Shown one piece after another: positions 157-26,968 of a DNA stretch of 28,185 bases. The notes under the pieces were generated by a model that made no database searches, was not told the DNA's origin, and saw only the letters and a list, made by a program, of their open reading frames with translations. Positions within the stretch are counted from its first letter, which is position 1, and every line of letters begins with the position of its first letter. Both the position numbers and the translations under genes were made by a program. The stretch comes from Microcoleus sp. Aus8_D1 (GTDB lineage: Bacteria > Cyanobacteriota > Cyanobacteriia > Cyanobacteriales > Microcoleaceae), in NCBI RefSeq assembly GCF_036702645.1, contig NZ_JAUBUO010000016.1:1-28185 (forward strand). Direction: 5' to 3'.

Positions 157-489
157 ATGGCACAACTAGCCGAGTTTTCCTTAGAAGATGGCACTACATT
201 TTTAGTAGAAATAGAAGAGCCAGAATCCCGAACTATCCAACGAGTCGCACTGCCTTCCGGACAGATGGTTGTCAAAGCTCAACAAAGTTTTGAACAAGCT
301 CTCGATCGAATTAAACCTGTAGCATCTACTATTCTTTCTAAACTCAAGGACTTAAATACTCCTGCTGATGAAGTAGAGGTCAAGTTTGGCATTAAACTGA
401 CGGCCGATGCTGGAGCAGTATTTACATCAATTGGAGGGGAAGTCAATTACGAGATTACCCTGAAATGGAAGCAGAATAAATCAAGTTAA
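157..489 (+). CDS. Small (110 aa) Trypco1-like (trypsin co-occurring domain) protein
   Basis: ORF ends 8 bp before a trypsin-like protease gene. The C-terminal segment DEVEVKFGIKLTADAGAVFTSIGGEVNYEITLKW resembles the conserved core of small trypsin-associated proteins (EVEFGxKxxAEAGAxIAKAGGEANFKVTLxW). Family assignment is from memory, not a search. Confidence 0.6.
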   Translation: MAQLAEFSLEDGTTFLVEIEEPESRTIQRVALPSGQMVVKAQQSFEQALDRIKPVASTILSKLKDLNTPADEVEVKFGIKLTADAGAVFTSIGGEVNYEITLKWKQNKSS

Positions 490-496
490 TCTCATC

Positions 497-1372
497 ATGA
501 ATAACAACTATTTTCAAGCTTTTAAAGGAGCGATCGCCCGCATATATCACGCTAATGGCGCAGTAGTTGGAGCGGGTTTTTTAGTATCCGATCGCTATCT
601 GATTACCTGTGCTCATGTTGTCGCAGCAGCTTTGAGTATTGCTCAGAACACTCAAGAACAGCCAACTGGTACGATCGAATTAGATTTTCCGCTAATTGCA
701 GCAGGGCAAAAAGTAAAGTCCAAGGTTGTATTCTGGCAGCCAGTTAATCCATCGCTCTCCGGAGAAGACATTGCCGGGTTAGAATTAGAGGGTAGTTTGC
801 CTAACATACAACCAGTATACTTGGTTGGTGCTGAAGATTATTGGCAGCATCCGATCAGAATTTTTGGATTTCCACAGGGGCACGATCTGGGAATATGGGC
901 AACTGCCACTCTGCGCGATCGCACTGCAAATAACTGGGTGCAAATAGATGCTGTAGCAGCTCAAAATCGGCCCGTTGAACAAGGGTTTAGCGGTGCGCCT
1001 GTATGGGATGAATCGCTGCAAGGAGTAGTCGGAATGGCGGTAGCGGCAGAAAAGCGACGAACAGATGTGACCGCTGCATTTATGATTCCTACTGCAATTT
1101 TACGAGGTGCATGGTTGGATTTAGAGCGATCGATCGCACACAATCCTTCGTCCATGAGGCAATCTCTTGATAGTTTGCCATCTTTTCGCCAAGTAAAGTT
1201 GAAGGCCTTAAAAAGTAACTACTCTATCTTGTGCGCTAAGTATGAAGCAGCTTACAATCAGCTTGGCTACACCTTAAATGACACTGATATTGTTAGCCTT
1301 AAACAGAAAATCAAAGGTCTCGAAACAGAAATCATGACATTAGAACGAGAAATTGATAGTTTATCTAACTGA
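497..1372 (+). CDS. Trypsin-like (S1/chymotrypsin fold) serine peptidase with C-terminal coiled-coil / EAD-like module
   Basis: LITCAHVV (catalytic His) and GFSGAPVW (catalytic Ser, GxSGxP) motifs. The C-terminal 60 aa are heptad-like (KQKIKGLETEIMTLEREIDSL) and homologous to the N-terminus of the next gene. Confidence 0.85.
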   Translation: MNNNYFQAFKGAIARIYHANGAVVGAGFLVSDRYLITCAHVVAAALSIAQNTQEQPTGTIELDFPLIAAGQKVKSKVVFWQPVNPSLSGEDIAGLELEGSLPNIQPVYLVGAEDYWQHPIRIFGFPQGHDLGIWATATLRDRTANNWVQIDAVAAQNRPVEQGFSGAPVWDESLQGVVGMAVAAEKRRTDVTAAFMIPTAILRGAWLDLERSIAHNPSSMRQSLDSLPSFRQVKLKALKSNYSILCAKYEAAYNQLGYTLNDTDIVSLKQKIKGLETEIMTLEREIDSLSN

Positions 1373-1382
1373 ATAGTTATCT

Positions 1383-2447
1383 ATGAATAATAAAAACAAC
1401 AATGAAAAGTTAATTGTTCGCAAAAAACAATATTTAGAGCTTCTATACAAACAATTTGATTCAGCTTATACACAATTGGAAACAACAGTAAATGAGTTTG
1501 ATAAACCTTCTATTCAAGCGAAAATCAAAGTTTTAGAGAACCAGATAGAACAAGTACACAAAGAAATTGACAACTTAGAATTACGCTCATCTCAAACAGG
1601 CAATGATTCGCATCCGCAATCTGGGAACTTCATCGAAAAATTGGGTAATGGCGTCCAGCTAGAAATGCTACATATTCCTCAAGGCAGCTTCTTAATGGGT
1701 TCGCCAGAAAATGAACTTGAGAGAAGCAACGATGAAGGCCCTCCGCACCCAGTGACTGTCCCAGCTTTCTTTATGGGCAAATATCCTGTCACCCAAGCTC
1801 AATGGAAAATTGTAGCAAATCTGCCTCAAGTTAACCGCGAACTCAATCCAGATCCTTCATGTTTCAAAGGTGTGAATCGCCCTGTTGAAACGGTTTCTTG
1901 GTATGATGCCGTCGAATTTTGTGCTCGCCTCTCCCTAGAAACTGGCAAGACTTACCGCTTACCCAGTGAAGCAGAATGGGAATACGCCTGTCGCGCTGGG
2001 ACAAACACGCCGTTTCACTTTGGGGAAACAATTACGACAGATTTAGCCAATTATAATGGTAATTATACTTATGCTGCTGGGTCTAAAGGAATTTACCGCG
2101 AACAAACAATGCCTGTGGGTAGTTTTGGGGTAGCCAATGCCTTTGGACTCTACGATATGCACGGAAACGTCTGGGAGTGGTGTGCAGACCCTTGGCATGA
2201 TAGTTATGACGGTGCGCCTGGTGATGGTAGGGTTTGGGATGAGACTTGTAATGATAATCGTTATCAAAACAGCATTGATTTATTAGTCCATACTGAGGCA
2301 AAAGATAACCGAACTCGGCTGCTGCGCGGTGGTTCGTGGCTCGTCTATCCGAGGAACTGCCGTTCGGCGATTCGCCTCAACCATGCGCCGGACATCGTCA
2401 ACTTCCTCAACGGTTTTCGGGTTGTGTGTGTCGCTGCGTGGACTTAA
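1383..2447 (+). CDS. FGE-sulfatase (SUMF1/formylglycine-generating-enzyme fold, FGS) domain protein with N-terminal coiled-coil module
   Basis: Motifs [58 protein letters not shown] and RLLRGGSW are diagnostic of the FGE-sulfatase fold. The N-terminal 60 aa are coiled-coil. Confidence 0.9.
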
Positions 2448-3091: not shown

Positions 3092-3652
3092 ATGAAATAC
3101 AATCCTCATATCCATCATCGCCGTTCTATTCGTCTACCAGGATACGACTATAGCCAATCAGGTGCATATTTTGTAACAATTTGTATTTGGCAACGTGAAT
3201 GTTTATTAAGTGAGATTCAAGAGGGGAATGTTTTATTAAGCCGCTACGGTGAAGTCGTTAACTTTAATTGGTTTAATCTCACAAGGGTGTATCCTCATAT
3301 TGAATTAGATTCCTTTGTGATTATGCCAAATCATATTCATGGAATTATTCTCATAAAACAACGGAATAAACGTCAGGGTTTATCGGAAATTGTGAGAGGT
3401 TTAAAAACCTTTTCTTCCCGGCGGATCAATCAAATACGTTCTGTTTCACAAATACCTGTATGGCAAAGGGGTTATTATGAACATATTATTCGCAATGAGG
3501 CAACATTCTCGAAAATTCAGGAATATATTATAAATAATCCGTTTAAGTGGGAAATGGATGAAATGCACCCATCACAAAAGTTTTACTATTCTAATAAAAT
3601 TGATATTAAATTAGATAGTGAAAATGTATTGCCGATGAATTTATCATTATAG
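3092..3652 (+). CDS. REP-associated tyrosine transposase (RAYT, TnpA_REP; IS200/IS605-like Y1 HUH enzyme)
   Basis: N-terminus HRRSIRLPGYDYSQSGAYFVTICI, HUH motif NHIHGIIL and catalytic-Tyr motif WQRGYYEHIIRNE. Flanked on both sides by REP-like palindromes. Confidence 0.85.
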   Translation: MKYNPHIHHRRSIRLPGYDYSQSGAYFVTICIWQRECLLSEIQEGNVLLSRYGEVVNFNWFNLTRVYPHIELDSFVIMPNHIHGIILIKQRNKRQGLSEIVRGLKTFSSRRINQIRSVSQIPVWQRGYYEHIIRNEATFSKIQEYIINNPFKWEMDEMHPSQKFYYSNKIDIKLDSENVLPMNLSL

Positions 3653-12223: not shown

Positions 12224-12341
12224 AATTAGTCCTGGACGCATGGAATTCATAAACTGGTTTTTTTACAAAAATACTTCGTCGCAGCCAGCAGAATCGGTAA
12301 AAAACCCGGTTTCTTTGGTATTTAGGCGTCCAGGACTAATT
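12224..12341. repeat. 16-bp perfect inverted-repeat pair (AATTAGTCCTGGACGC / GCGTCCAGGACTAATT) separated by about 86 bp
   Basis: Arms at 12224-12239 and 12326-12341. The right arm overlaps the stop codon of the STAND gene. Confidence 0.7.
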
Positions 12342-13730
12342 TGGTGATAACCCTTTGATATATTGCTTCAGTACAGGTGGCAAAGTGTAAAGGCTTTCCT
12401 GTTTTTCGATCGAGCAGCGTCGCGAGAGAGATTGCAATGCGTTTAGCAAATTTGATGATGATATTTGTCCGTTTTGTAGCAATTTGGCGACGTTGACTGG
12501 CTGGTTTTCTGTCGCCAACAATGACATGACTTGTTTTTCGAGTTCGGAAGTGCGATCGTACTGCTCATGTAAAACATCTTTTAAATCTTCGGGTAACAAT
12601 ATGGTATCATCTATTAATAACTCATTCGCGCCGATGCCCAACTCTTGAATCAGAGTCGCCACGCTTTTTAACCATAACGGGTTGCCTTGGTAGCGGTGAA
12701 TGAGTGCTTCGCAGTTATCGATTTCTGCTAATCCTTTATCTCTGAGGATTTCCCGTGCGGCCGCAGTGTCTAAACCAGTGAGTTGTAAAGTCCGAATGGG
12801 AGTATTTTCGCTGGTGAGTTGAGGAACTTCTTTCGGCGGTTCCCAACCGATTAGCAGAAAGCAACTTTGATGGGATAATGTCTCTATTTGTTTGAATAAG
12901 GAGCGATATTCTTCGTATTCGGGTTTATACTTTCCTGCCAATTCGCCGCTACAGAAAAGGTTGTGAACGTCATCTAAGACTATTAAACAGCGATGGTTTT
13001 GTAAATATTTAATCAGCGGTAAGCGTTTCTGGTTGTTTGAGGATGAATCTTGTTTTTCTGACTGGGAAAAAAGCTGTATTAGGTTAGATTTAAATTTATC
13101 GATGGTGGGGAATTCGTCTAGGGTGCACCAAACTGCGTATTCAAACTCGTCTTTGATTTGTTTTACGAGTTGTACTGCTAGGGATGTTTTGCCGATGCCG
13201 AGTCGGCCGGTGAGGGTGATAAGGCGGCAGTTTTGTTGTAGAATCCAGGTTGTGAGGGTTTGGAGTTGAGGAGTGCGATCGAAGAAGTCGCCCAACTCCG
13301 GCATTTCGCTTAAATCTTGATGTAAAGTTTTAGTTTGTTTTGGGTTAGATGTTTCGTCATTATCTGGATGTGACGTTGATATATCTGGGGGGTGTCTTCC
13401 TTCTCCACAGGTATTAAAATTACCACTGATGTGTTGTTCTATGACGTTTTGTGTAAAGCTTGAAACATTAGAGACTTGAAACCTTTGAATTGCCGAGCGA
13501 AAATTCTTTTTATTGACATTTTCCCCCAACTCCTCTGAAAGTAATTGCCATAATTCCGAAGCCGCATTCCTAACACGACTTTCAGAACAGTCAAAGTCTT
13601 TGGCTACGTGCTTGTATGTCTCGTGTTGTACAGTTCCTTTCAGTACCGCCTCTTGTAAATCATCAAGGTGTTGACCCGTTTTCTCGAAGACTATGCGATC
13701 GGCGAAGTTTAACATTTCTTTGAGATTCAT
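12336..13730 (-). CDS. Short STAND (NB-ARC-like) NTPase with the cyanobacterial N-terminal HTH-like domain and no C-terminal repeat array
   Basis: Walker A LTGRLGIGKTSLAVQLV; Walker B-like CLIVLDDVHN. The N-terminus (LQEAVLKG...YKHVAKDF..SESRVRNAASELWQLLSEELGENVNKKNFRSAIQRF) matches the conserved N-domain of cyanobacterial NB-ARC/WD40 proteins. Confidence 0.85.
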   Translation of the reverse strand: MNLKEMLNFADRIVFEKTGQHLDDLQEAVLKGTVQHETYKHVAKDFDCSESRVRNAASELWQLLSEELGENVNKKNFRSAIQRFQVSNVSSFTQNVIEQHISGNFNTCGEGRHPPDISTSHPDNDETSNPKQTKTLHQDLSEMPELGDFFDRTPQLQTLTTWILQQNCRLITLTGRLGIGKTSLAVQLVKQIKDEFEYAVWCTLDEFPTIDKFKSNLIQLFSQSEKQDSSSNNQKRLPLIKYLQNHRCLIVLDDVHNLFCSGELAGKYKPEYEEYRSLFKQIETLSHQSCFLLIGWEPPKEVPQLTSENTPIRTLQLTGLDTAAAREILRDKGLAEIDNCEALIHRYQGNPLWLKSVATLIQELGIGANELLIDDTILLPEDLKDVLHEQYDRTSELEKQVMSLLATENQPVNVAKLLQNGQISSSNLLNALQSLSRRCSIEKQESLYTLPPVLKQYIKGLSPN

Positions 13731-14269: not shown

Positions 14270-15586
14270 ATGAATATAGACTTAAACTGGCTTCCTCATC
14301 AAGCTCCTACAATCGACTTTAAGGCAACTCTGCATCCATCAAAAGAAATTGCATCACGTTGGTTTAACTTTCCACCTTACCATGACGAGCCGAAACTTTG
14401 GCATCTCTCTGCTCAAGTCAAACCCAGTATAGACATTAAAGATGAAAACTTACAGGAGGTCGCTGGAGGTTCGTCACTGGACTTTGATAGAGCTCTCGCA
14501 AAACTGGCGGGGGAAACCGTTGAGCGTTATGCGATCTCTAAGAATGTCAATCTGAACTTGAATGATTTACAATCATGGCAGGAATTGGTACAGCAAAATT
14601 TGTGTGCGCTAGATCCGTTCCAACTTGTGATTGGTGATGAACATCGACATAAATCGCGTCGTAACGATAAAATTTCATGGATTCAAGGATTTGATTTAAA
14701 CTTACAAGTTCCTGCACTTATTCCTGCACAGCTAGTCTTTGTTCCGCATATTTTTAGAGATAATGAAGCTGTTTGGAGATCCGCTGTATCAACAGGTGCG
14801 GCAGCACACTCTACACTTGAGGGAGCTTTATATGCTGGTCTTTGTGAAGTCGTAGAGAGAGACGCTTTTCAAATTGCTTGGCTTAGACAGTTAAGATTAA
14901 CTAGGATAAATATAACTACAGGTGATACTTACTTCTACAATTCTATCAATAAACTAATTGATGCTGGTAAAAGATATCATCTTCACTGTGAGCTATATCA
15001 GCTTCCTTGTTCTATTCCCTTATCTGTTTGCATGGCAGTTATTTGGGATAATACAGGTATTGGACCTCGGTGTTCTCTGGGTGCAAAATGTTCTCAATCA
15101 AGCTTAACAGCCTGTGTCGGAGCACTTGAGGAAGCTTACCAAATGCGTTCTTGGTTGCGATATACACTCAACAAGTCGGGAGCATTTTCAAAGAATAAGC
15201 CACTTGATACATTGCTCGATAGAGCGAGACATTGGTTAACACATGAAGCTTCAGAAGTTCTTAAAAGTTGGACTCAACAATTCAACAGTTCTATTTCTTT
15301 ATCTGAAAGACCCTCTGAACTTTCTCTTGGTGAATTAGTTGAGTCAGTTAAACAAGATGGAGGTACTGCATATTTCGTTGACTTAACAGCGAAATTACCT
15401 GAATGTCTGCATCAATTGGGTTGGCATATTACAAAGGTAATCATTCCAGAGTACCAACCGCTAAACTTAACGGAGTCAATGGAAGACTTCGCCTTGCTAA
15501 GAATTGATAATGCTTCTCAGCGTTTGAATGCTGAAGCTCTTATTCCAGCGGGAGAGAAATTTAGATATCCTCATCCTTTTTTGTGA
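14270..15586 (+). CDS. YcaO-domain protein (standalone, 438 aa)
   Basis: AGETVERYAIS (ExxER ATP-binding motif) and STGAAAHSTLEGALYAGLCEVVERDAF (YcaO signature). Confidence 0.9.
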   Translation: MNIDLNWLPHQAPTIDFKATLHPSKEIASRWFNFPPYHDEPKLWHLSAQVKPSIDIKDENLQEVAGGSSLDFDRALAKLAGETVERYAISKNVNLNLNDLQSWQELVQQNLCALDPFQLVIGDEHRHKSRRNDKISWIQGFDLNLQVPALIPAQLVFVPHIFRDNEAVWRSAVSTGAAAHSTLEGALYAGLCEVVERDAFQIAWLRQLRLTRINITTGDTYFYNSINKLIDAGKRYHLHCELYQLPCSIPLSVCMAVIWDNTGIGPRCSLGAKCSQSSLTACVGALEEAYQMRSWLRYTLNKSGAFSKNKPLDTLLDRARHWLTHEASEVLKSWTQQFNSSISLSERPSELSLGELVESVKQDGGTAYFVDLTAKLPECLHQLGWHITKVIIPEYQPLNLTESMEDFALLRIDNASQRLNAEALIPAGEKFRYPHPFL

Positions 15587-15595
15587 GCAATCAAT

Positions 15596-16372
15596 ATGAA
15601 TATTACAGATCGACAAAGCAAAGACAATGATCCATTGGGGCAGGGAATTCAACTAGCTCAGGCATTTGAAGAAGCTACTTGGATTCACGATGCTTCTTCT
15701 CTCCAAGCAAGTTATATTCCCCATTCCTGGACATCGATAAATAGGAAGGAATATCGCCGTTTACCAAGAGTTGATTTGAGCGGACTACGTTCTCCAAGTC
15801 AAAATAGCGAATTAAGCAAGGTATTTGAACATCGGTCATCCAAGCGACAATTTTTACCGGAACCTATTGCGTTAGAAACGCTGAGTACGATGCTAGCAAC
15901 GGTTGCCAGCACTCGAAATGAAGAACCTCCAAGCCGAGTTTATCCTTCTGCTGGTCTAAGGTGGCCAATTGAGTGGTATCTTGCCGCAATCAATGTAGCT
16001 TCACTGGAAGCTGGAGTTTATCATTATGAATCATTTGATCATCAACTGGAAACACTAAAAATAGGCAATCCTTGGAACGAGCTTGCGGAAGCGCTTTCAA
16101 TGCAAACCATTGATCGTCCATCAGCTTTACTAATCTTAACTTCTGTATTTCATAGAAGTTGGATTAAGTATGGCATTCGTGGAAGTCGATATGCTTATCT
16201 AGAAGCTGGTGCAGCAGCCATGTCCTTAAATATTGTTGCAGTAGAGGCTAACATTGGTGTAGTTTGGCTAGGTGGCTTTGTTGACTCCTCTATTTCAAAG
16301 ATTCTTGATATTAATTGGAAAATGGAGTTAGAAACTCCGGTTCTATGTCTCGCGCTTGGACATCCTATTTAG
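15596..16372 (+). CDS. SagB-type dehydrogenase (nitroreductase-fold, TOMM azoline oxidase-like)
   Basis: SSKRQFL, YPSAGLRWPIEWYL (PSAGGLYP-like) and RYAYLEAGAAAMSLNIVAVEANIGVVWLGGF motifs. Starts 9 bp after ycaO. Confidence 0.85.
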   Translation: MNITDRQSKDNDPLGQGIQLAQAFEEATWIHDASSLQASYIPHSWTSINRKEYRRLPRVDLSGLRSPSQNSELSKVFEHRSSKRQFLPEPIALETLSTMLATVASTRNEEPPSRVYPSAGLRWPIEWYLAAINVASLEAGVYHYESFDHQLETLKIGNPWNELAEALSMQTIDRPSALLILTSVFHRSWIKYGIRGSRYAYLEAGAAAMSLNIVAVEANIGVVWLGGFVDSSISKILDINWKMELETPVLCLALGHPI

Positions 16373-16985: not shown

Positions 16986-17465
16986 TCAAAATTCCTCTTC
17001 TATAATCTTAAAAGTTCCCATACCCAGTTCCAGAGTAGGTGATGTTAAATTTTGTAGCCATTCCTGCCGAGTCACGCCACTACAATCTATATTATTAAAC
17101 ACAATTTCCTGTTCGTCGATTGTAATTGATATCCCTTGATCGTAGCCATTAGTAGCAATTTGCTGCTGTCGTCGTAAATCATAAATCACTGACCAAGGTA
17201 GGTCTTGCCTTTCTAAATCCAGTTTAATCTGCTTACCATGTAGGTTTCTGATGGTCAAGAACTCTTTGATAGCCTGACTGCATTCAACACATTGAAAGAC
17301 TCCATAGCGACTGGCAATTTTAGCGATATCTTCTCTAATTTCATCTAAACTACTGGGATCTAAACTCAAAGTGTAAAGTTTACCTCCTATATTTATGGAC
17401 AAGTATATCTCAAAATTATTGCCATTGAGTGCTCGACCGATCGCATAGGGTGCGCGCTCTTGCAA
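16986..17465 (-). CDS. Hypothetical protein (159 aa, TTG start); possible toxin-type C-terminal cassette
   Basis: ORF-track ORF. The reading frame stays open upstream through the repeat R, encoding RAIALATIIVLFGICCEGISRSLGKAL before the annotated start. Confidence 0.5.
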   Translation of the reverse strand: MQERAPYAIGRALNGNNFEIYLSINIGGKLYTLSLDPSSLDEIREDIAKIASRYGVFQCVECSQAIKEFLTIRNLHGKQIKLDLERQDLPWSVIYDLRRQQQIATNGYDQGISITIDEQEIVFNNIDCSGVTRQEWLQNLTSPTLELGMGTFKIIEEEF

Positions 17466-17954: not shown

Positions 17955-18125
17955 TAGATTTTGTAGGGTGCGTCAGGCACAAAATGATGGGTATGTCGTC
18001 TCAGCTTCATTCCTGACGCACCTACAAAACTTCGGGAATAAATCATTAGTGCGTAGCCGCCACATTCCTGACGCACCTACAAAACTTGGTGAATAAATCA
18101 TTAGTCCGCAGTCGCCACATTCTGA
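17955..18125. repeat. Second REP-like palindromic family (GTAGGGTGCGTCAGG / CCTGACGCACCTAC), one forward arm and two reverse arms with a 55-bp tandem duplication
   Basis: Arms at 17962-17977, 18012-18026 and 18067-18081. Confidence 0.8.
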
Positions 18126-18169
18126 CAGTAAAAGCACCCTCAAATAACTCCAGCTTTCAGCTAGGTCAA

Positions 18170-20627: not shown

Positions 20628-21836
20628 TCAAACAAATTTGTGCGTAAATTCACTGGTAAAATCCACTCTCCCTTTCCGCAACATTGCAGGATCTAATCTT
20701 TCAATGGTGTTACAAGTTAGTAAAACTACGAGTTTCTGCTGAAATTGAATGCCTTGTTCGTCCATGACGCTTTGATACAAAGTTCCATCCAGCAAACTCA
20801 AAATATGTTCAGTTTTGTTACTACGTTGAGCCGCTGCGGTCGATCGATCTTGAGCCAAATTATCAGCCTCGTTAATAATGATGCAAATCCGCTCCAAATA
20901 ACTCGGCGGCACAAAATTTTCCACAGCATCATGATCCAAGATAAAAATCACATAACCCAGCGGCACTAAAATCTCCTTTGCTACCGCTTGAGTCCAAGCA
21001 GTTTTACCAGTCCCCGGTTCACCGCTAACCAAAACAGCCAACTGATTTTGATCCAGAATTGCCTGCTGAACAGTATCAGTAAAACTTTGAACTTCCGCAG
21101 AAAAAGTCCGAATTGGGAACTGACTGTGAACCTGTCCGACGCGGCTTTTGTACCCGCTGAGAATCACCGCTAAATTGTAAGTAGCCTTGCTAACCAACGG
21201 CGCAATATCTTGGCAAATCAGAGTGTAGCAGCGTCTTCCCCTGTCGTAGCTGTCAATTTGCAGCCAACAGCCGCATCGCGCCCAATAAGCATAAACAGTA
21301 CCCAAAACCTCCAAACGTTCCCAGCTAACAAATCGTTCCGGCGGATAAGAAAAATGCCGTTCCATAAAAAACTGGGTAATCGCATCCGGTTTTCCCAGCA
21401 AATCCAGAACTTTGAAAACAGTAATTTCTTGGAGTTTGTTGAGAACGTAATCAATGGGAATGCTAGCGCGGCTGACCAATTGCACCACGGGCGTTTCCGT
21501 GACTAAAACATCTTTGTAACGGTAATCCGGGTAAACAGGCTGCGGAGTAATGTAATCCCAAAACTCGTCTATTTCGTAGCGAGTATTTTCCGAGAATACA
21601 TTTAAGATATTTGCCCACCAGGTATATTGATGTCGTCCCATGGCATCGGCAATGTCGCTGGCTGCATCTAAACTTTTTTGAGCTAGTTCTCTGGGGTCGC
21701 TAGACGCTAAGTGCAGCAGGTATTCCCAATCAAATTGACGGTATAGAGGTCGCCAGCCTGAGCCGAGCAGCCCTCGATTTTGAGGATTGTTTTGATTAAA
21801 ATTGTTGTCGCGATCGCCCATGTTGTCCGCACTCAT
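20628..21836 (-). CDS. AAA+ ATPase with an uncharacterised ~250-aa N-terminal region
   Basis: Walker A GEPGTGKTAWTQAVAKE, Walker B IIINEAD, sensor-2 LRKGRVD in the C-terminal half; N-terminal half matches no family I recognise. Confidence 0.8.
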   Translation of the reverse strand: MSADNMGDRDNNFNQNNPQNRGLLGSGWRPLYRQFDWEYLLHLASSDPRELAQKSLDAASDIADAMGRHQYTWWANILNVFSENTRYEIDEFWDYITPQPVYPDYRYKDVLVTETPVVQLVSRASIPIDYVLNKLQEITVFKVLDLLGKPDAITQFFMERHFSYPPERFVSWERLEVLGTVYAYWARCGCWLQIDSYDRGRRCYTLICQDIAPLVSKATYNLAVILSGYKSRVGQVHSQFPIRTFSAEVQSFTDTVQQAILDQNQLAVLVSGEPGTGKTAWTQAVAKEILVPLGYVIFILDHDAVENFVPPSYLERICIIINEADNLAQDRSTAAAQRSNKTEHILSLLDGTLYQSVMDEQGIQFQQKLVVLLTCNTIERLDPAMLRKGRVDFTSEFTHKFV

Positions 21837-21907
21837 TTTCGGTAACTCCTAGTTACTCTTATTTTCAAAGATTGGCCGCAGATTTGCTACAACTAAACTG
21901 GATTTTT

Positions 21908-22453
21908 TCAACAGAGTTTGAGATTATTTGGCGGCACCATATCTACCAACCAAACTCTGTTATCCGAGCAGTAAAATGTATGGCCGTCCTGTTGCATTGC
22001 TGCGGCATCTACAGCCAAGACTGCCGGGATGCCGTGTCTGGCACCTACTTTACGCGCTGTCTGAATGTCCGCCGACAAATGAACGTGATGCCGCGACATT
22101 TTCCTAATTCCTTGACTCAGAATAGACTCGACGGCAGTCCTACCTGTTCCGTGATATAAAATATCTGGGGGAACAGCAGGTTCTAACTGCAAGTCAACCT
22201 CTACACTGTGTCCTTGGTTGGCACGAATGAGAGTGCCCGTTTCGTCGAAGGAAAAGCGCTGTTTGTCGTTTTGCGCGACTACTTGCTTGAGTTCTGCAAG
22301 CTGAAGGGGGAAGTTATTTTTTTGGCAGGCATCGAGGAGTTCGCTAACAGGAACCCAGCCTCCCGGCGCGAGTTGAATGCCGATGCGCGAGGGCGCGTGG
22401 CGCAGGTGTTTGCTGAGATATCTGCTGATTTTTCTTAATCGGGTATCATTCAT
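21908..22453 (-). CDS. kptA: RNA 2'-phosphotransferase Tpt1/KptA family protein
   Basis: LSKHLRHAP...GGWVPVSELL; YHGTGRTAVESILSQGIRKMSRHHVHLS (HGT...RxHVHLS) diagnostic of Tpt1/KptA. Confidence 0.9.
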   Translation of the reverse strand: MNDTRLRKISRYLSKHLRHAPSRIGIQLAPGGWVPVSELLDACQKNNFPLQLAELKQVVAQNDKQRFSFDETGTLIRANQGHSVEVDLQLEPAVPPDILYHGTGRTAVESILSQGIRKMSRHHVHLSADIQTARKVGARHGIPAVLAVDAAAMQQDGHTFYCSDNRVWLVDMVPPNNLKLC

Positions 22454-22597
22454 GATTTTACTTAAATTATTGAGTTATTTCGTGGGTAGATCTGGTTTAT
22501 TTAATCTGTTTGTCCTGCGAGGAGAAGGATTGAGTGGAATAATGCCTGTAAACTCAAGTCTGAAATTATTTGTATTTCTCGTTTATAGCAGAATCTC

Positions 22598-22678
22598 GAT
22601 CCCCCTAAATCCCCCTTAAGAAGGGGGACTTTGAGAATGCTCCTGTCCCCCCTTTTTAAGGGGGGTTAGGGGGGATCT
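22598..22678. repeat. G/C-run nested hairpin cluster (CCCCCTTaagAAGGGGG; CCCCCCTTtttAAGGGGGG; outer GATCCCCCTAAATCCCCC / GGGGGGTTAGGGGGGATC)
   Basis: Direct reading; in the intergenic gap between the 3' end of the methyltransferase gene and the kptA upstream region. Confidence 0.7.
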
Positions 22679-22748
22679 AGACTAAGCTAGAAGCGAGATT
22701 ACTAATTAATTTTAGTCTTAAATTGACACGAATGTGAGCTAACTAATC

Positions 22749-22815
22749 GTAGGGTGCGTCAGGGGGAAAATTGTTGAGCAAGCAGTCACAATATTCATTC
22801 CTGACGCACCCTACA
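22749..22815. repeat. REP-like hairpin of the second family (GTAGGGTGCGTCAGGG ... CCTGACGCACCCTAC), 16-bp arms and 35-nt loop
   Basis: Same arms as the 17955-18125 element. Confidence 0.8.
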
Positions 22816-22851
22816 ATAGCTTTTGATGATTATTATCAAAAACTCTGCTTT

Positions 22852-23547
22852 CTACTTTGGGATAACTCCGCCAAAAATAGCAAAATTGAGATGGCGCCAG
22901 TGACAAGCTGCGTCTGCAAAACCCGCTGCTGCCAGCCACTTGGTTTGCTCTTCCACAGAGGAAGGAATATCTTCTTTTAGATAGCTGTTAAAACACGCTG
23001 CATCGTCTTCTCCATTAGCTTTGATGTACTGCCGCCACAAATGTTCGTATTGCTCTGTCAGCTTTGGGGTAGCACCTGTGACAATATCTCGGATTAGCAA
23101 GATTCCCCCGGCATTCATTGAGTGAAAAAGTTTGTGAAATAGCTGTTGTTTCCCGGCGCTGTCTAGGTGGTGGATTGCCAACCCTGAAACTACCAAATCG
23201 TAACCGCTGCCGAAATCATATTCTGCGAAATTTCCCTGTTGCAATGTCAGCCGATGTCCGAAATTTGACAAGTTGGTTTGACAAACTTTTAGCATATTTT
23301 CCGCCATGTCAAAGGCTGTGATGTTTGCTTGAGGAAATGCTGGCAAAATCATTGCCGACAGTATGCCAGTTCCGGCGCCTAAATCTAGAACTTTGATGTT
23401 AGCATGGGTTTCAAAATCTATTAATTGCAATATTATTTCGTGTTGCTCGCGATAGTGCGGAATCAGGCGGGGAATTAAACTATCATAATCAAATGCTCTT
23501 TGTTCAAATTGCTGGCGTACATCGTCTAAATTCCTAGATAAATTCAC
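22852..23547 (-). CDS. Class I SAM-dependent methyltransferase
   Basis: Motif I VLDLGAGTGILS; post-I acidic FDMAE; Rossmann-fold pattern. Confidence 0.85.
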   Translation of the reverse strand: MNLSRNLDDVRQQFEQRAFDYDSLIPRLIPHYREQHEIILQLIDFETHANIKVLDLGAGTGILSAMILPAFPQANITAFDMAENMLKVCQTNLSNFGHRLTLQQGNFAEYDFGSGYDLVVSGLAIHHLDSAGKQQLFHKLFHSMNAGGILLIRDIVTGATPKLTEQYEHLWRQYIKANGEDDAACFNSYLKEDIPSSVEEQTKWLAAAGFADAACHWRHLNFAIFGGVIPK

Positions 23548-23790: not shown

Positions 23791-23825
23791 CAGTTGACAG
23801 TTGACAGTTGACAGTTGACAGTTAA
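23791..23825. repeat. STRR-like heptamer (CAGTTGA)5, the reverse complement of the 10731-10837 unit
   Basis: cagttgacagttgacagttgacagttgacagttaa. Confidence 0.85.
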
Positions 23826-24145: not shown

Positions 24146-26968
24146 TTGAGTGGATGTGCTGTTTGCCGAGCATTCATGAAAATAAAAATATACAAAATAT
24201 TACACCCGCCGGCGCGGAAAAAAACAGTGATAATTAATCAGGATGCGAGTAGATTAGGTGTCAGCCATCAGGGGAAAATAGAAGCCATGAAAATTCAACA
24301 GCGGAGCCAGGATAGGCCCGATCGCCCAGACAAAATTTCTACGACAAAAGAACTAGATTCGTCGTTGCAAGCATCTTTAGATTTTAAAGTAGCGATCGAC
24401 CGCTCCGCACTGGCGGTGAGAACCGACGCCCGAGGAATTATCAACTACGTCAGCGATCGAGTTTGCTGTATCTCTAATTATTCGCGTACCGAACTGATCG
24501 GCTGCCATTTCGGCATCCTCCACTCGGAATATAAGTCTTCGGAATTAATCAAAAATCTGCGGTCAACTGTTGCGAAAAATGAAGTTTGGCAAGGAGAAAT
24601 CAAGAATAAAGCCAAGAATGGTAGGGATTATTGGGTGTACGCAGCAGTAGTTCCGCTGTTGGACTTCGAGGGAAAATCCTGTCAGTATTTGGCGATCGGA
24701 TTCGACATCACCGATCGCAAAGCCGTTGAAGCCGCCCAGATCGCAGCCAACCACGCAAAAGACGAATTTTTGGCGATCGCGTCCCACGAGCTGCGATCGC
24801 CCCTGAGCGCGATTTTGGGATGGGTACAGCTAGCTCGATCGCGCAAGTTAAACGAAGCGATTATGAACCGCGCTTTGGAAATCATCGAGCGCAACGCCAA
24901 ATTGCAAAACCGGCAAATAGACAATCTCCTCGATTTGAGTCGGCTGCTGCGGGGGAAAGTCCAACTGAACGTCGGCCGAGTTCACCTCCCGTCTGCGATC
25001 GAATCTGCGATCGACACCCTCCGTCCCGCCGCCGAGGCTAAAAAGCTCCGCGTAGAAACACATTTCTACCCCGCTGTCAGCTACATTTTGGCAGATGCAG
25101 AACGCTTGCAGCAAATAGTCTGGAACCTCCTCGCCAACGCCATCAAATTCACCCCAGAATCGACACCAGAGCCAGTTGAAGTGCGGATCGAGCCTACAGA
25201 GTCGGGCACATTGATTCGGGTCAGCGACAGCGGTTGCGGGATCGACCCCAAATTTCTGCCGCACATCTTTGACTACTTCCGCCCCACAGATAGCTTCCAG
25301 GCCAAAGAACAAAACCGGCTCGGGTTGGGACTCTGCATTGTGCGCCAGTTGGTGGAACTGCACGGGGGAACTGTTTGGGCTTCCAGTCCCGGTCTGGGTC
25401 AGGGGGCGACTTTTGGCGTGCTGCTACCGATCGCTCACAGCAACAATTCGCGCGATCGCACTCCGGAGATCGCCCGCACCGAAAACCACGCGGAATCGGT
25501 TTCCAAACCCCTAGCCGGAAAGCAAGTGCTGGTGGTGGAAAGCAGCGCCGAGATCCGGGAATTTCTCAAAACAGCCCTCGAAGCATTTGGAGCCAAGGTA
25601 ACAGCGGTGGGTAGCGCCGGCGAAGCCATGGCCGAGTTGGAACAGTCGCGGCCCGACGTGTTGGTGAGCGATATGGATGTGCCGGAAACAGACGGCTGCG
25701 ATTTGATCCGCCGCGTCAGAGCCATGGAAATGTCCGAGCACAGGGAGCTGCTGCCGGCGGTAGCGCTCACGGGAGGCGTCCGTGAGGAGGATTCGGCATC
25801 GGCGCTCTCTGCGGGGTTTCAGAGGCATTTATCGAAGCCGGTGTCCGCGAATCAGTTGGTAAGTGCGATCGTCCAATTGGCTGGACTGACTGGATTTGGC
25901 TGCTCAGACGCGGGAAATGTTGGGGCGATCGCCCCGCTGCCGGACTCTAACAGTTGTGACGACAAAAATAATGGCGGACAATTGACGGCTGACAGCCAAG
26001 AATTACCGCTGTTGCTGGTAGTAGAAGACAACCATTTTCTGCTGGCTTACCTCCAAACATTATTGAGTCCGTACTATCGAGTCGCCATAGCGATGGACGG
26101 GGTTGAAGGTTTAGAAAAAGCCAAAATATTGCAGCCAAATTTGATTTTGAGCGACCAAATCATGCCCAGGCAAAACGGGCTGGATTTGCTCAAGGAGATT
26201 CGGAACACACCGGAATTGAGTTCGACTCCGGTAATCTTTTTGACAGCGCGATCGGGCATGGAAGCTCGGATCGAAAGTTTGGATGCCGGTGCTGACGATT
26301 ATATTTCCAAGCCTTTTGACGAGAGGGAACTGTTGGCGAGGGTCAGAAATTTGCTGAGAACCCACGCAGCCGAACAGCAGTTGACGGCGCTCAACCGTCA
26401 ATTGCAGCAGCAAAAACGGCAGTTAGAAACAGTGAATCGAGCTTTGCAGTATTTGGCAACTTACGACAGTTTGACTGAGGTAAGAAACCGCCGCTTTTTT
26501 AATGATTATCTCGATACGGAATGGCGGCGTTTGGCGAGGGAAGAAGCGCCGCTGTCTTTGATTATGTGCGATATCGATTATTTCAAACTTTATAACGATA
26601 CTTACGGCCACCAAGCCGGGGATGAGTGTTTGCGACAAGTGGCGCAGGTTCTCCAGTGTTCGGTAAAGCGATCGGCTGATTTAGTTGCGCGTTACGGTGG
26701 AGAAGAATTTGCCGTAGTTTTGCCGAATACGGATATCGAAGGTGCGGCTTGCGTTGCTGAAACGATCGCGCAACAGGTACGGGGTTTGCAGATACTTCAC
26801 GCGAAGTCTGCTGTCAGCGAATATGTCACACTGAGTTTGGGTGTGGCTTGCTGCATTCCGGCGCCGATGTCGCAGCCGGGGACGTTAATTGCGATCGCCG
26901 ATGAGTCGCTGTATCGGGCGAAAGAGGCTGGGCGCGATCGGGTTTCGGTTGCCGCCTTTGAAGCATAA
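24146..26968 (+). CDS. Hybrid PAS sensor histidine kinase - REC - REC - GGDEF diguanylate cyclase
   Basis: H-box ASHELRSPL; HATPase DSGCGI and GLGLCIV; two receiver domains (VLVSDMDVPETDG and LILSDQIMPRQNG); GGDEF RYGGEEFAVVL. Likely true start is the internal Met at about 24287 (MKIQQRSQ). Confidence 0.9.
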   Translation: MSGCAVCRAFMKIKIYKILHPPARKKTVIINQDASRLGVSHQGKIEAMKIQQRSQDRPDRPDKISTTKELDSSLQASLDFKVAIDRSALAVRTDARGIINYVSDRVCCISNYSRTELIGCHFGILHSEYKSSELIKNLRSTVAKNEVWQGEIKNKAKNGRDYWVYAAVVPLLDFEGKSCQYLAIGFDITDRKAVEAAQIAANHAKDEFLAIASHELRSPLSAILGWVQLARSRKLNEAIMNRALEIIERNAKLQNRQIDNLLDLSRLLRGKVQLNVGRVHLPSAIESAIDTLRPAAEAKKLRVETHFYPAVSYILADAERLQQIVWNLLANAIKFTPESTPEPVEVRIEPTESGTLIRVSDSGCGIDPKFLPHIFDYFRPTDSFQAKEQNRLGLGLCIVRQLVELHGGTVWASSPGLGQGATFGVLLPIAHSNNSRDRTPEIARTENHAESVSKPLAGKQVLVVESSAEIREFLKTALEAFGAKVTAVGSAGEAMAELEQSRPDVLVSDMDVPETDGCDLIRRVRAMEMSEHRELLPAVALTGGVREEDSASALSAGFQRHLSKPVSANQLVSAIVQLAGLTGFGCSDAGNVGAIAPLPDSNSCDDKNNGGQLTADSQELPLLLVVEDNHFLLAYLQTLLSPYYRVAIAMDGVEGLEKAKILQPNLILSDQIMPRQNGLDLLKEIRNTPELSSTPVIFLTARSGMEARIESLDAGADDYISKPFDERELLARVRNLLRTHAAEQQLTALNRQLQQQKRQLETVNRALQYLATYDSLTEVRNRRFFNDYLDTEWRRLAREEAPLSLIMCDIDYFKLYNDTYGHQAGDECLRQVAQVLQCSVKRSADLVARYGGEEFAVVLPNTDIEGAACVAETIAQQVRGLQILHAKSAVSEYVTLSLGVACCIPAPMSQPGTLIAIADESLYRAKEAGRDRVSVAAFEA

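Follow-up and report, generated by a model that had tools for sequence, protein, structure and literature searches.

The RNA 2'-phosphotransferase KptA is encoded in Microcoleus sp. Aus8_D1 directly beside an unusual AAA ATPase, and comparison of related genomes strongly supports the two genes as a functional pair. The genes lie within a stretch of 28,185 nucleotides (RefSeq assembly GCF_036702645.1, contig NZ_JAUBUO010000016.1, positions 1 to 28,185), here called the window, and form a vertically inherited two-gene module of filamentous cyanobacteria with the following layout.

21908-22453, minus strand: kptA, 181 amino acids, a Tpt1/KptA nicotinamide adenine dinucleotide (NAD+)-dependent RNA 2'-phosphotransferase that is predicted to be active
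21837-21907, minus strand: the kptA-AAA spacer, 71 bp
20628-21836, minus strand: the AAA ATPase gene, 402 amino acids, founding member of a narrow family

An earlier, sequence-only reading of this DNA had placed kptA directly upstream of the AAA gene with a 71-bp gap, and the 181- and 402-codon open reading frames on one strand agree with it. The AAA reading frame is not a chance one: 914 homologs of its product were found, one of them 100% identical and belonging to an unclassified Microcoleus. An AGGAG ribosome-binding site can be read in the spacer 9 nt ahead of the AAA start codon, and a terminator scan finds no terminator-like site on the gene strand within 21837-21907. Co-transcription of kptA and the AAA gene is therefore likely. 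Across the window, promoter-like and terminator-like sites are not enriched over shuffled sequences, and an Rfam scan gives zero matches.

Linkage was counted in the best 80 of at least 405 species genomes that contain a confirmed relative of the AAA protein, with one genome scanned per species. The AAA proteins of these 80 loci show 70-98% identity and represent many genera of filamentous cyanobacteria. Searches with the window proteins (tblastn) place kptA immediately upstream of the AAA gene, on the same strand, in 74/80 loci, and the genera that carry the pair are Microcoleus, Tychonema, Kamptonema, Okeania, Hormoscilla, Dapis, Microseira, Coleofasciculus, Floridaenema, Aerosakkonema, Symplocastrum, Cyanosarcina and Waterburya. 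When the open reading frames within 6 kb are clustered, only the AAA gene (78/80) and kptA (73/80) prove to be conserved. The same holds for the more distant loci (n = 37), where the AAA gene recurs in 36, kptA in 34 and the next-best gene, a histidine kinase, in 9. The spacer has a mode of 69-71 bp and a range of 25-1210 bp across related loci, and at one locus (L079) the order of the two genes is swapped with the genes still adjacent. The converse test, which starts from two kptA homologs of 71-72% identity, finds the AAA gene directly downstream in 6/6 loci (L122-L127), and all six AAA genes belong to the main clade (75-77% identity). Pairwise distances between KptA proteins and between AAA proteins are strongly correlated over 65 loci (Mantel r = 0.887), a value that 0/999 permutations reach. 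The two genes thus stay linked in relatives; the sequence-only reading had named the opposite outcome as its refutation. The surroundings of the six kptA-first loci are entirely different from those in the window and comprise ScpB, an ABC transporter, DUF760, lipoate ligase, EF-Ts, XisH/XisI, ThiF and an RRM protein; the sequence-only reading had asked whether kptA neighbourhoods elsewhere contain defence-island genes, and in these lineages ScpB, EF-Ts, ThiF and lipoate ligase are examples of the housekeeping neighbours present. None of RNA ligase, 2H, macro, Thg1, NADAR or sirtuin genes is conserved with the pair, either in the neighbour clustering of the 80 loci or in the gene calls of L122-L127.

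Two loci with unexpected labels also carry the pair. They are assigned to 'Actinomycetota bacterium MAG69' (L045) and 'Richelia sp. CSU_2_1' (L035), show 79% and 87% identity to Microcoleus, respectively, and have syntenic kinases. These contigs look like mis-binned or mislabelled oscillatorian cyanobacterial sequence.

The two partners are not equally constrained. With 16 Microcoleus and Tychonema relatives as the comparison, the ratio of nonsynonymous to synonymous substitution rates (dN/dS) is lowest in the neighbourhood for the AAA gene, at 0.082, compared with 0.213 for kptA, 0.214 for the methyltransferase gene, 0.276 for the histidine kinase (730 aa) and 0.271 for the hybrid kinase-GGDEF gene (940 aa). 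Loss is also one-sided. The AAA gene is intact at L007, L052, L066 and L068, where kptA is split, at L063, where a remnant of kptA is left, and at L031, L040, L065 and L072, where kptA is absent, so the more indispensable partner is the ATPase.

Residues 5-171 of KptA match PF01885 (E = 9.9e-53; 179 bits against a cutoff of 26), and the protein scores 270.3 bits on the NCBIfam equivalog NF002014, above the cutoff of 239. Its sequence matches the solved structure 7kw8, of Runella slithyformis Tpt1, with E = 3.6e-56. The Arg-His-Arg-Arg tetrad described for Tpt1 (PMC8120803) is kept: in the alignment R18-H19, R66 and R121, within the motifs LRH (17-19), KQRF (64-67) and SRHHVH (120-125), are identical to those of solved Tpt1 enzymes. 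Since all of the catalytic residues are in place, KptA is predicted to be a catalytically intact enzyme for NAD+-dependent removal of RNA 2'-phosphates. The chemistry known for KptA includes NAD+-dependent removal of internal or junction RNA 2'-phosphates as well as ADP-ribosylation of 5'-phosphate ends (PMC9503650, PMC8120803, PMC9095486), and the physiological substrates of bacterial Tpt1 are unknown (PMC8120803). The protein is small (~20 kDa) and basic, with a computed isoelectric point (pI) of 9.1 compared with 5.1 for the acidic AAA ATPase.

The AAA protein divides into the following parts, given from N to C terminus with the motifs of the core.

Residues 1-17: a disordered tail in the structure model
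Residues 18-96 (21549-21785, minus strand): a five-helix bundle with the G-W motif RGLLGSGWRPL (21-31)
Residues 105-235, start approximate (21132-21524, minus strand): an alpha/beta domain of a strand, helix, hairpin, three strands, helix and hairpin
Residues 247-402 (20631-21098, minus strand): a classical-clade AAA alpha-beta-alpha core with no helical lid subdomain
Residues 272-279 (21000-21023, minus strand): Walker A, GEPGTGKT
Residues 317-325 (20862-20888, minus strand): the Walker B region, ICIIINEAD, with Asn322-Glu323 in place of Asp-Glu
Residues 374-377 and 380-392 (20661-20717, minus strand): sensor-1, TCNT, and the second region of homology (SRH), RLDPAMLRKGRVD, with Arg fingers R387 and R390

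Residues 268-397 match PF00004 (E = 2.7e-13), and the features of the classical AAA clade are present in the form of Walker A, the sensor-1 Asn and an SRH with two Arg fingers. Walker A, N376, R387 and R390 are invariant across the family alignment, and the SRH aligns to those of Cdc48 and phage BCS1. The AAA identity and the Walker A and LRKGRVD motifs (the latter residues 386-392) named by the sequence-only reading are thus sound, but its Walker B needs correction. The classical hhhhDE pattern is replaced by IIINE, in which Asn322 stands for the Asp and Glu323 is kept; both residues are near-invariant in the family, and the NE aligns to the DE of Cdc48 (IDEID). The protein also stops 10 residues past the Arg-finger motif, so that the C-terminal helical lid is absent. 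This absence is common to all 20 members aligned, a few of which have short unstructured tails. Because the lid-less end and the NE are kept in every relative, even very distant ones, the AAA gene is not truncated. The protein has no transmembrane segment (its maximum 19-residue hydropathy of 1.53 falls within the AAA core) and is predicted to be cytosolic. Alignment by eye pairs DAVENFVPP, which includes the near-invariant Phe308, with the pore-loop region DFVEMFVGV of FtsH and suggests an FtsH-like pore-loop region here, but HMMER placed this region differently. Two other identities were considered and rejected. A P-loop kinase that writes 2'-phosphates does not fit, as the weak Zeta-toxin and AAA_18 matches span the P-loop only and the presence of sensor-1 and Arg fingers identifies a genuine AAA protein. 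An RtcR-like transcription activator does not fit either; the DNA-binding domain is absent and the match is at the level of the P-loop.

The N-terminal region had been described as matching nothing recognisable over about 250 residues, and this is so at the sequence level. Residues 1-250 have no match in Pfam, NCBIfam or PHROGs, and a profile of the N-domain finds nothing among PDB sequences. When these 250 residues alone are compared with 1.84 billion cluster representatives, only 41 proteins are returned, namely one main cluster, fragments and about a dozen full-length proteins of ~400 aa with 22-37% identity. The family is therefore narrow and its architecture fixed. W28 is invariant and G27 near-invariant in the family alignment.

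A structure prediction of the N-domain, suggested in the sequence-only reading, points to a fold of the Bcs1/YjoB chaperone class and does not resemble a defence sensor. The AlphaFold model was built from 20 diverse sequences (predicted local distance difference test, pLDDT, 80.4; predicted template modelling score, pTM, 0.73), and a model from 10 close sequences was discarded (pLDDT 33). In the retained model two further strands lie between the alpha/beta domain and the core and join the AAA sheet. Whole-chain Foldseek searches of the PDB return full-length Bcs1 for all of the top 11 matches, with E values between 2e-13 and 6e-10. For the isolated Bcs1 AAA domain E is 7e-10, and other AAA proteins score from 6e-9, which places full-length Bcs1 about three orders of magnitude ahead of its own AAA domain and four to five orders ahead of other AAA proteins. 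The best matches in a viral structure library are ATPases of jumbo phages and giant viruses annotated as 'BCS1'. The N-domains of this class consist of a four-strand sheet, a connector hairpin and two helices followed by two sheet-enlarging strands, and YjoB has an N-domain similar in fold to the Bcs1-specific domain with no sequence similarity to it (PMC7994207, PMC9565160). The topology of our one model agrees with these published descriptions, and together with the whole-chain searches it suggests an N-domain fold like that of Bcs1 and YjoB. Sequence comparison draws a limit here. Pfam BCS1_N is unmatched in 20/20 members even at E <= 5, whereas a true phage BCS1 does match it; together with the empty PDB profile and an hhalign comparison that finds the phage protein over the AAA core only, this result indicates that the Bcs1 link is at the level of fold.

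Divergent AAA members (22-47% identity) occur in phages and mobile regions, and KptA is absent from 8/8 of the loci examined. One member, from the 38-42% identity range, lies between dUTPase and dNMP kinase/ThyX genes of an uncultured phage (L084, 8001-9191), in a module that also has ribonucleotide reductase alpha, RuvC and a Mu-type portal. Another in the same identity range lies in a phage-like array of small open reading frames from an uncultured phage (L082, 6001-7203), whose contig also carries an arginyl-tRNA synthetase gene. The remaining settings include a ParA and IS605 neighbourhood, an island of small open reading frames with an IS66 transposase on a 526-kb genome contig, and a site near an nSTAND1 NTPase and a PRiA4 domain protein. 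A comparison of the neighbours of these members gave no Pfam identity and no shared partner. Searches of GenBank phages, PLSDB plasmids and IMG/VR revealed no full-length relative of the AAA protein; in IMG/VR the family alignment finds generic AAA cores only, and the divergent members P0136 and P0128 find nothing. Since the divergent members at these eight loci lack kptA, the link to kptA arose in the slowly evolving chromosomal clade and is specific to it.

We give about an even chance to the reading that the pair is a co-transcribed, vertically inherited module for housekeeping or stress-related RNA processing in which the ATPase is the core remodeller and KptA an accessory. The cytosolic, classical-clade ATPase would assemble into a ring and would remodel a specific protein or ribonucleoprotein client in the manner of Bcs1 or YjoB, and KptA would clean or mark RNA that belongs to this client or to the pathway in which it acts. 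A physical or substrate link between the two proteins would be part of such a scheme. Several points weigh against this reading. The evidence comes from sequence and predicted structure, and contact of the ATPase with RNA or KptA is hypothetical. The missing lid and the Walker B Asn raise the question of whether the protein hydrolyses ATP and forms a ring. The likeness of the N-domain to Bcs1 and YjoB comes from one AlphaFold model and whole-chain searches with low whole-chain TM-scores (0.3-0.4), and it has no sequence-profile backing (BCS1_N 0/20, PDB profile empty), the hhalign match to phage BCS1 covering the AAA core only (97.7% probability). In addition, the linkage sample is only the best 80 of at least 405 matching genomes, and assembly errors may account for part of the 'split' kptA genes. 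A more ambitious version, in which a lid-less Bcs1-like ring ATPase presents or opens structured RNA or ribonucleoprotein so that KptA can edit its 2'-phosphates or 5'-phosphate ADP-ribose, is in our opinion unlikely. If it were true, it would for the first time uncover a pathway with a physiological substrate for a bacterial Tpt1 and would provide a classical-clade AAA protein whose N-terminal helical bundle replaces the missing lid.

A different role for the ATPase would be that of a dedicated chaperone or gatekeeper of KptA, with a Bcs1-like chamber that holds the enzyme until a signal arrives. The tight, conserved adjacency, the opposite charges of the two proteins (pI 5.1 and 9.1) and the ability of Bcs1 and YjoB to keep specific folded proteins in a chamber would all fit, but the ATPase is intact and more constrained where the adjacent kptA is degraded or gone, and its phage relatives occur without any KptA. 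Both observations argue against KptA as its sole client, and because the ATPase outlives kptA and is the more constrained of the two, we rank a core remodeller with an accessory KptA above this private chaperone, to which we assign a similarly small likelihood as to the RNA-opening ring. The defence or conflict module suggested by the sequence-only reading is more doubtful than either; in it KptA would be the effector, acting by ADP-ribosylation of 5'-phosphate ends of invading nucleic acids or by consumption of NAD+, with the AAA protein as its sensor or activator. KptA-like enzymes can ADP-ribosylate nucleic acids (PMC8120803), divergent AAA members reside in phages and mobile or variable regions, and conflict-type genes lie 3-20 kb away in the window (Trypco1, trypsin-EAD9, FGE-sulfatase-EAD9, NB-ARC STAND NTPase and Tox-PL-2). 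Those genes are not conserved with the pair in the 80-locus clustering, however, and the neighbours in other lineages are housekeeping genes. PADLOC gives 0 matches for KptA and only partial AAA-module matches for the AAA protein, to TRIP13 (residues 316-389, E = 8.5e-8) and to IetA at the P-loop, with no full-length match to a PADLOC-DB defence model for either protein. Vertical co-inheritance, strong purifying selection (dN/dS 0.082 for the AAA gene), the missing PADLOC support and the unconserved conflict genes argue for a core module instead of island-borne defence, as do the predicted chaperone-class N-fold and the lack of kptA at all eight phage or mobile loci.

Phages invite a further explanation, that of a domesticated RNA-repair module in which a captured phage KptA and AAA protein once repaired tRNAs that host nucleases had cleaved. 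The phage family phrog_5470 is matched by KptA (E = 1.9e-63), phages use KptA in tRNA repair (PMC9503650, PMC7824862), and divergent AAA members are phage-borne beside dUTPase, dNMP kinase, ThyX and ribonucleotide reductase genes. Yet the two genes occur together in 0 of the phage or mobile loci examined (n = 8), full-length AAA relatives were not found in the three phage and plasmid collections named above, and the pair has no conserved ligase, 2H, macro or Thg1 neighbour; we regard such an origin as quite improbable. Least probable of all is adjacency without shared function, in a stable genomic spot or under a shared promoter. It would account for the loss of kptA where the AAA gene persists and for spacers of up to 1.2 kb in some genomes, but in many genera the two genes keep their order side by side amid otherwise changing neighbours, the swapped genes of L079 are still adjacent, and the Mantel r of 0.887 also weighs against it.

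The module matters for two reasons. Bacterial Tpt1/KptA is active in vitro, and its cellular target has been an open question for more than 20 years; a partner gene that is co-inherited in many genera and is more constrained than kptA offers an experimental handle on the KptA substrate through the clients of the ATPase. A lid-less family with an Asn-Glu Walker B also tests ideas about what classical AAA rings require.

The immediate flanks of the pair are less conserved than the pair itself. The upstream side begins with one further feature.

22454-22851, minus strand: the 398-bp region 5' of kptA, with a hairpin repeat (22746-22817) directly past the methyltransferase gene, G/C-run repeats and one weak promoter-like site (22738-22709)

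This region is the probable start of the kptA-AAA transcription unit, and the promoter assigned to it is putative. Its hairpin repeat, with the core GTAGGGTGCGTCAGG, is found at 17956-18126 and 22746-22821 (3 copies, compared with 0.01 expected). The first site follows the histidine kinase gene and the second separates the methyltransferase gene from kptA, so that they bracket the kinase-AAA-kptA block. A 55-nt unit is repeated 2.2 times at 17997-18126. Only Microcoleus and Tychonema retain the methyltransferase and the two histidine kinases found on either side of the pair here (tblastn, 80 loci). The methyltransferase beside kptA (22852-23547, minus strand) is a class I S-adenosylmethionine-dependent enzyme that matches PADLOC mad2 (E = 2.5e-19) over the methyltransferase domain only; outside Microcoleus and Tychonema, a single Cyanosarcina locus shows its linkage to the pair. 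The pair does lie among repeats and signalling genes, as had been remarked, with a PAS histidine kinase downstream, a hybrid kinase-GGDEF gene further upstream and intergenic hairpin repeats, but this setting appears incidental. A perfect heptamer repeat, CAGTTGA x 4.7, occupies intergenic positions 23791-23823 upstream of the hybrid kinase-GGDEF gene, and positions 24500-26000 within this 940-aa PAS-kinase-REC-REC-GGDEF gene have a GC content of 0.54-0.58 compared with ~0.44 window-wide.

Several other genes in the window deserve mention. At 157-2447 (plus strand) three consecutive genes encode a Trypco1 protein, a trypsin-like peptidase whose EAD9 is C-terminal and an FGE-sulfatase protein whose EAD9 is N-terminal, and the shared EAD9 suggests a conflict or NLR-type system. 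An IS200-like Y1 transposase reading frame (3092-3652, plus strand; PF01797, E = 8.7e-10) lies in a low-GC stretch (about 0.36-0.38). A 464-aa NB-ARC/STAND NTPase (12336-13730, minus strand; PF00931, E = 4e-14) has no Pfam match at E <= 1e-4 in its first ~150 residues. A YcaO cyclodehydratase followed by a nitroreductase-family protein (14270-16372, plus strand) is the usual enzyme pair of azol(in)e-forming clusters for ribosomally synthesized and post-translationally modified peptides. Finally, a 159-aa protein with a Tox-PL-2 papain-fold toxin domain (16986-17465, minus strand; E = 1.8e-27) is found in few related Microcoleus loci.

Comparison with known systems shows a familiar enzyme in an unfamiliar setting. 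KptA has the same full-length PF01885 domain and the same catalytic tetrad as characterised bacterial Tpt1/KptA proteins (7kw8/7kw9; Clostridium thermocellum Tpt1, 6e3a/6ede). The published neighbours of KptA in bacteria and phages are Thg1, RNA ligases, 2H, macro, sirtuin, ARH and NADAR, with AAA proteins unmentioned (PMC9503650, PMC8120803). The present neighbourhood differs in that the AAA ATPase is the only conserved partner. The only prokaryotic setting of KptA with a demonstrated natural-type substrate, an internal RNA 2'-phosphate, is the ArkI/KptA writer-eraser pair for tRNA 2'-phosphouridine, Up47 (PMC9095486). KptA has an ATP-using partner in both cases, but ArkI is an RNA kinase with a protein-kinase fold, whereas the partner here is an AAA protein with Arg fingers and sensor-1, and the 80-locus clustering reveals no ArkI-like gene linked to the pair.

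In whole-chain structure the best match of the AAA partner is mitochondrial Bcs1 (Foldseek E ~1e-13), an AAA protein that translocates the Rieske protein in folded form. The two share a classical-clade core, an SRH very like LLR[PK]GRxD and, in the predicted model, the same order of N-domain strands and helices with two extra strands before the AAA core. Unlike Bcs1, the cyanobacterial ATPase has no transmembrane anchor, no BCS1_N match and no AAA-small lid, and it carries an extra N-terminal helical bundle; its Walker B residues are NE, compared with ED in Bcs1 (PMC9565160). It is also a cytosolic bacterial protein whose partner is an RNA enzyme. YjoB of Bacillus subtilis, which acts in the cytosol as a substrate-specific AAA chaperone, occurs only in Bacilli; it possesses a lid, its Walker B is ED, and it is unlinked to kptA; similarity between the two N-domain sequences is not detectable when the N-domain profile is compared with the PDB. 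Bcs1 and YjoB each have an internal chamber in which they act on specific folded proteins (PMC7994207, PMC9565160). The top viral-structure matches, the BCS1-like ATPases of jumbo phages and giant viruses, resemble the lid-less family in that both have phage-borne members, and BCS1 of Tenacibaculum phage pT24 aligns over the AAA core (hhalign, 97.7%). The jumbo phage BCS1 differs in possessing a true BCS1_N domain and a lid (494 aa), shows no N-domain sequence similarity and is unlinked to kptA. The jumbo phage orthologs have been proposed to act in membrane-proximal virion assembly and are not tied to KptA (PMC7824862). A KptA-AAA pair is not described in the literature searched, which excludes most subscription journals, and the module is apparently undescribed. 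What is new here is the combination of a known enzyme with an undescribed and unusual AAA partner.

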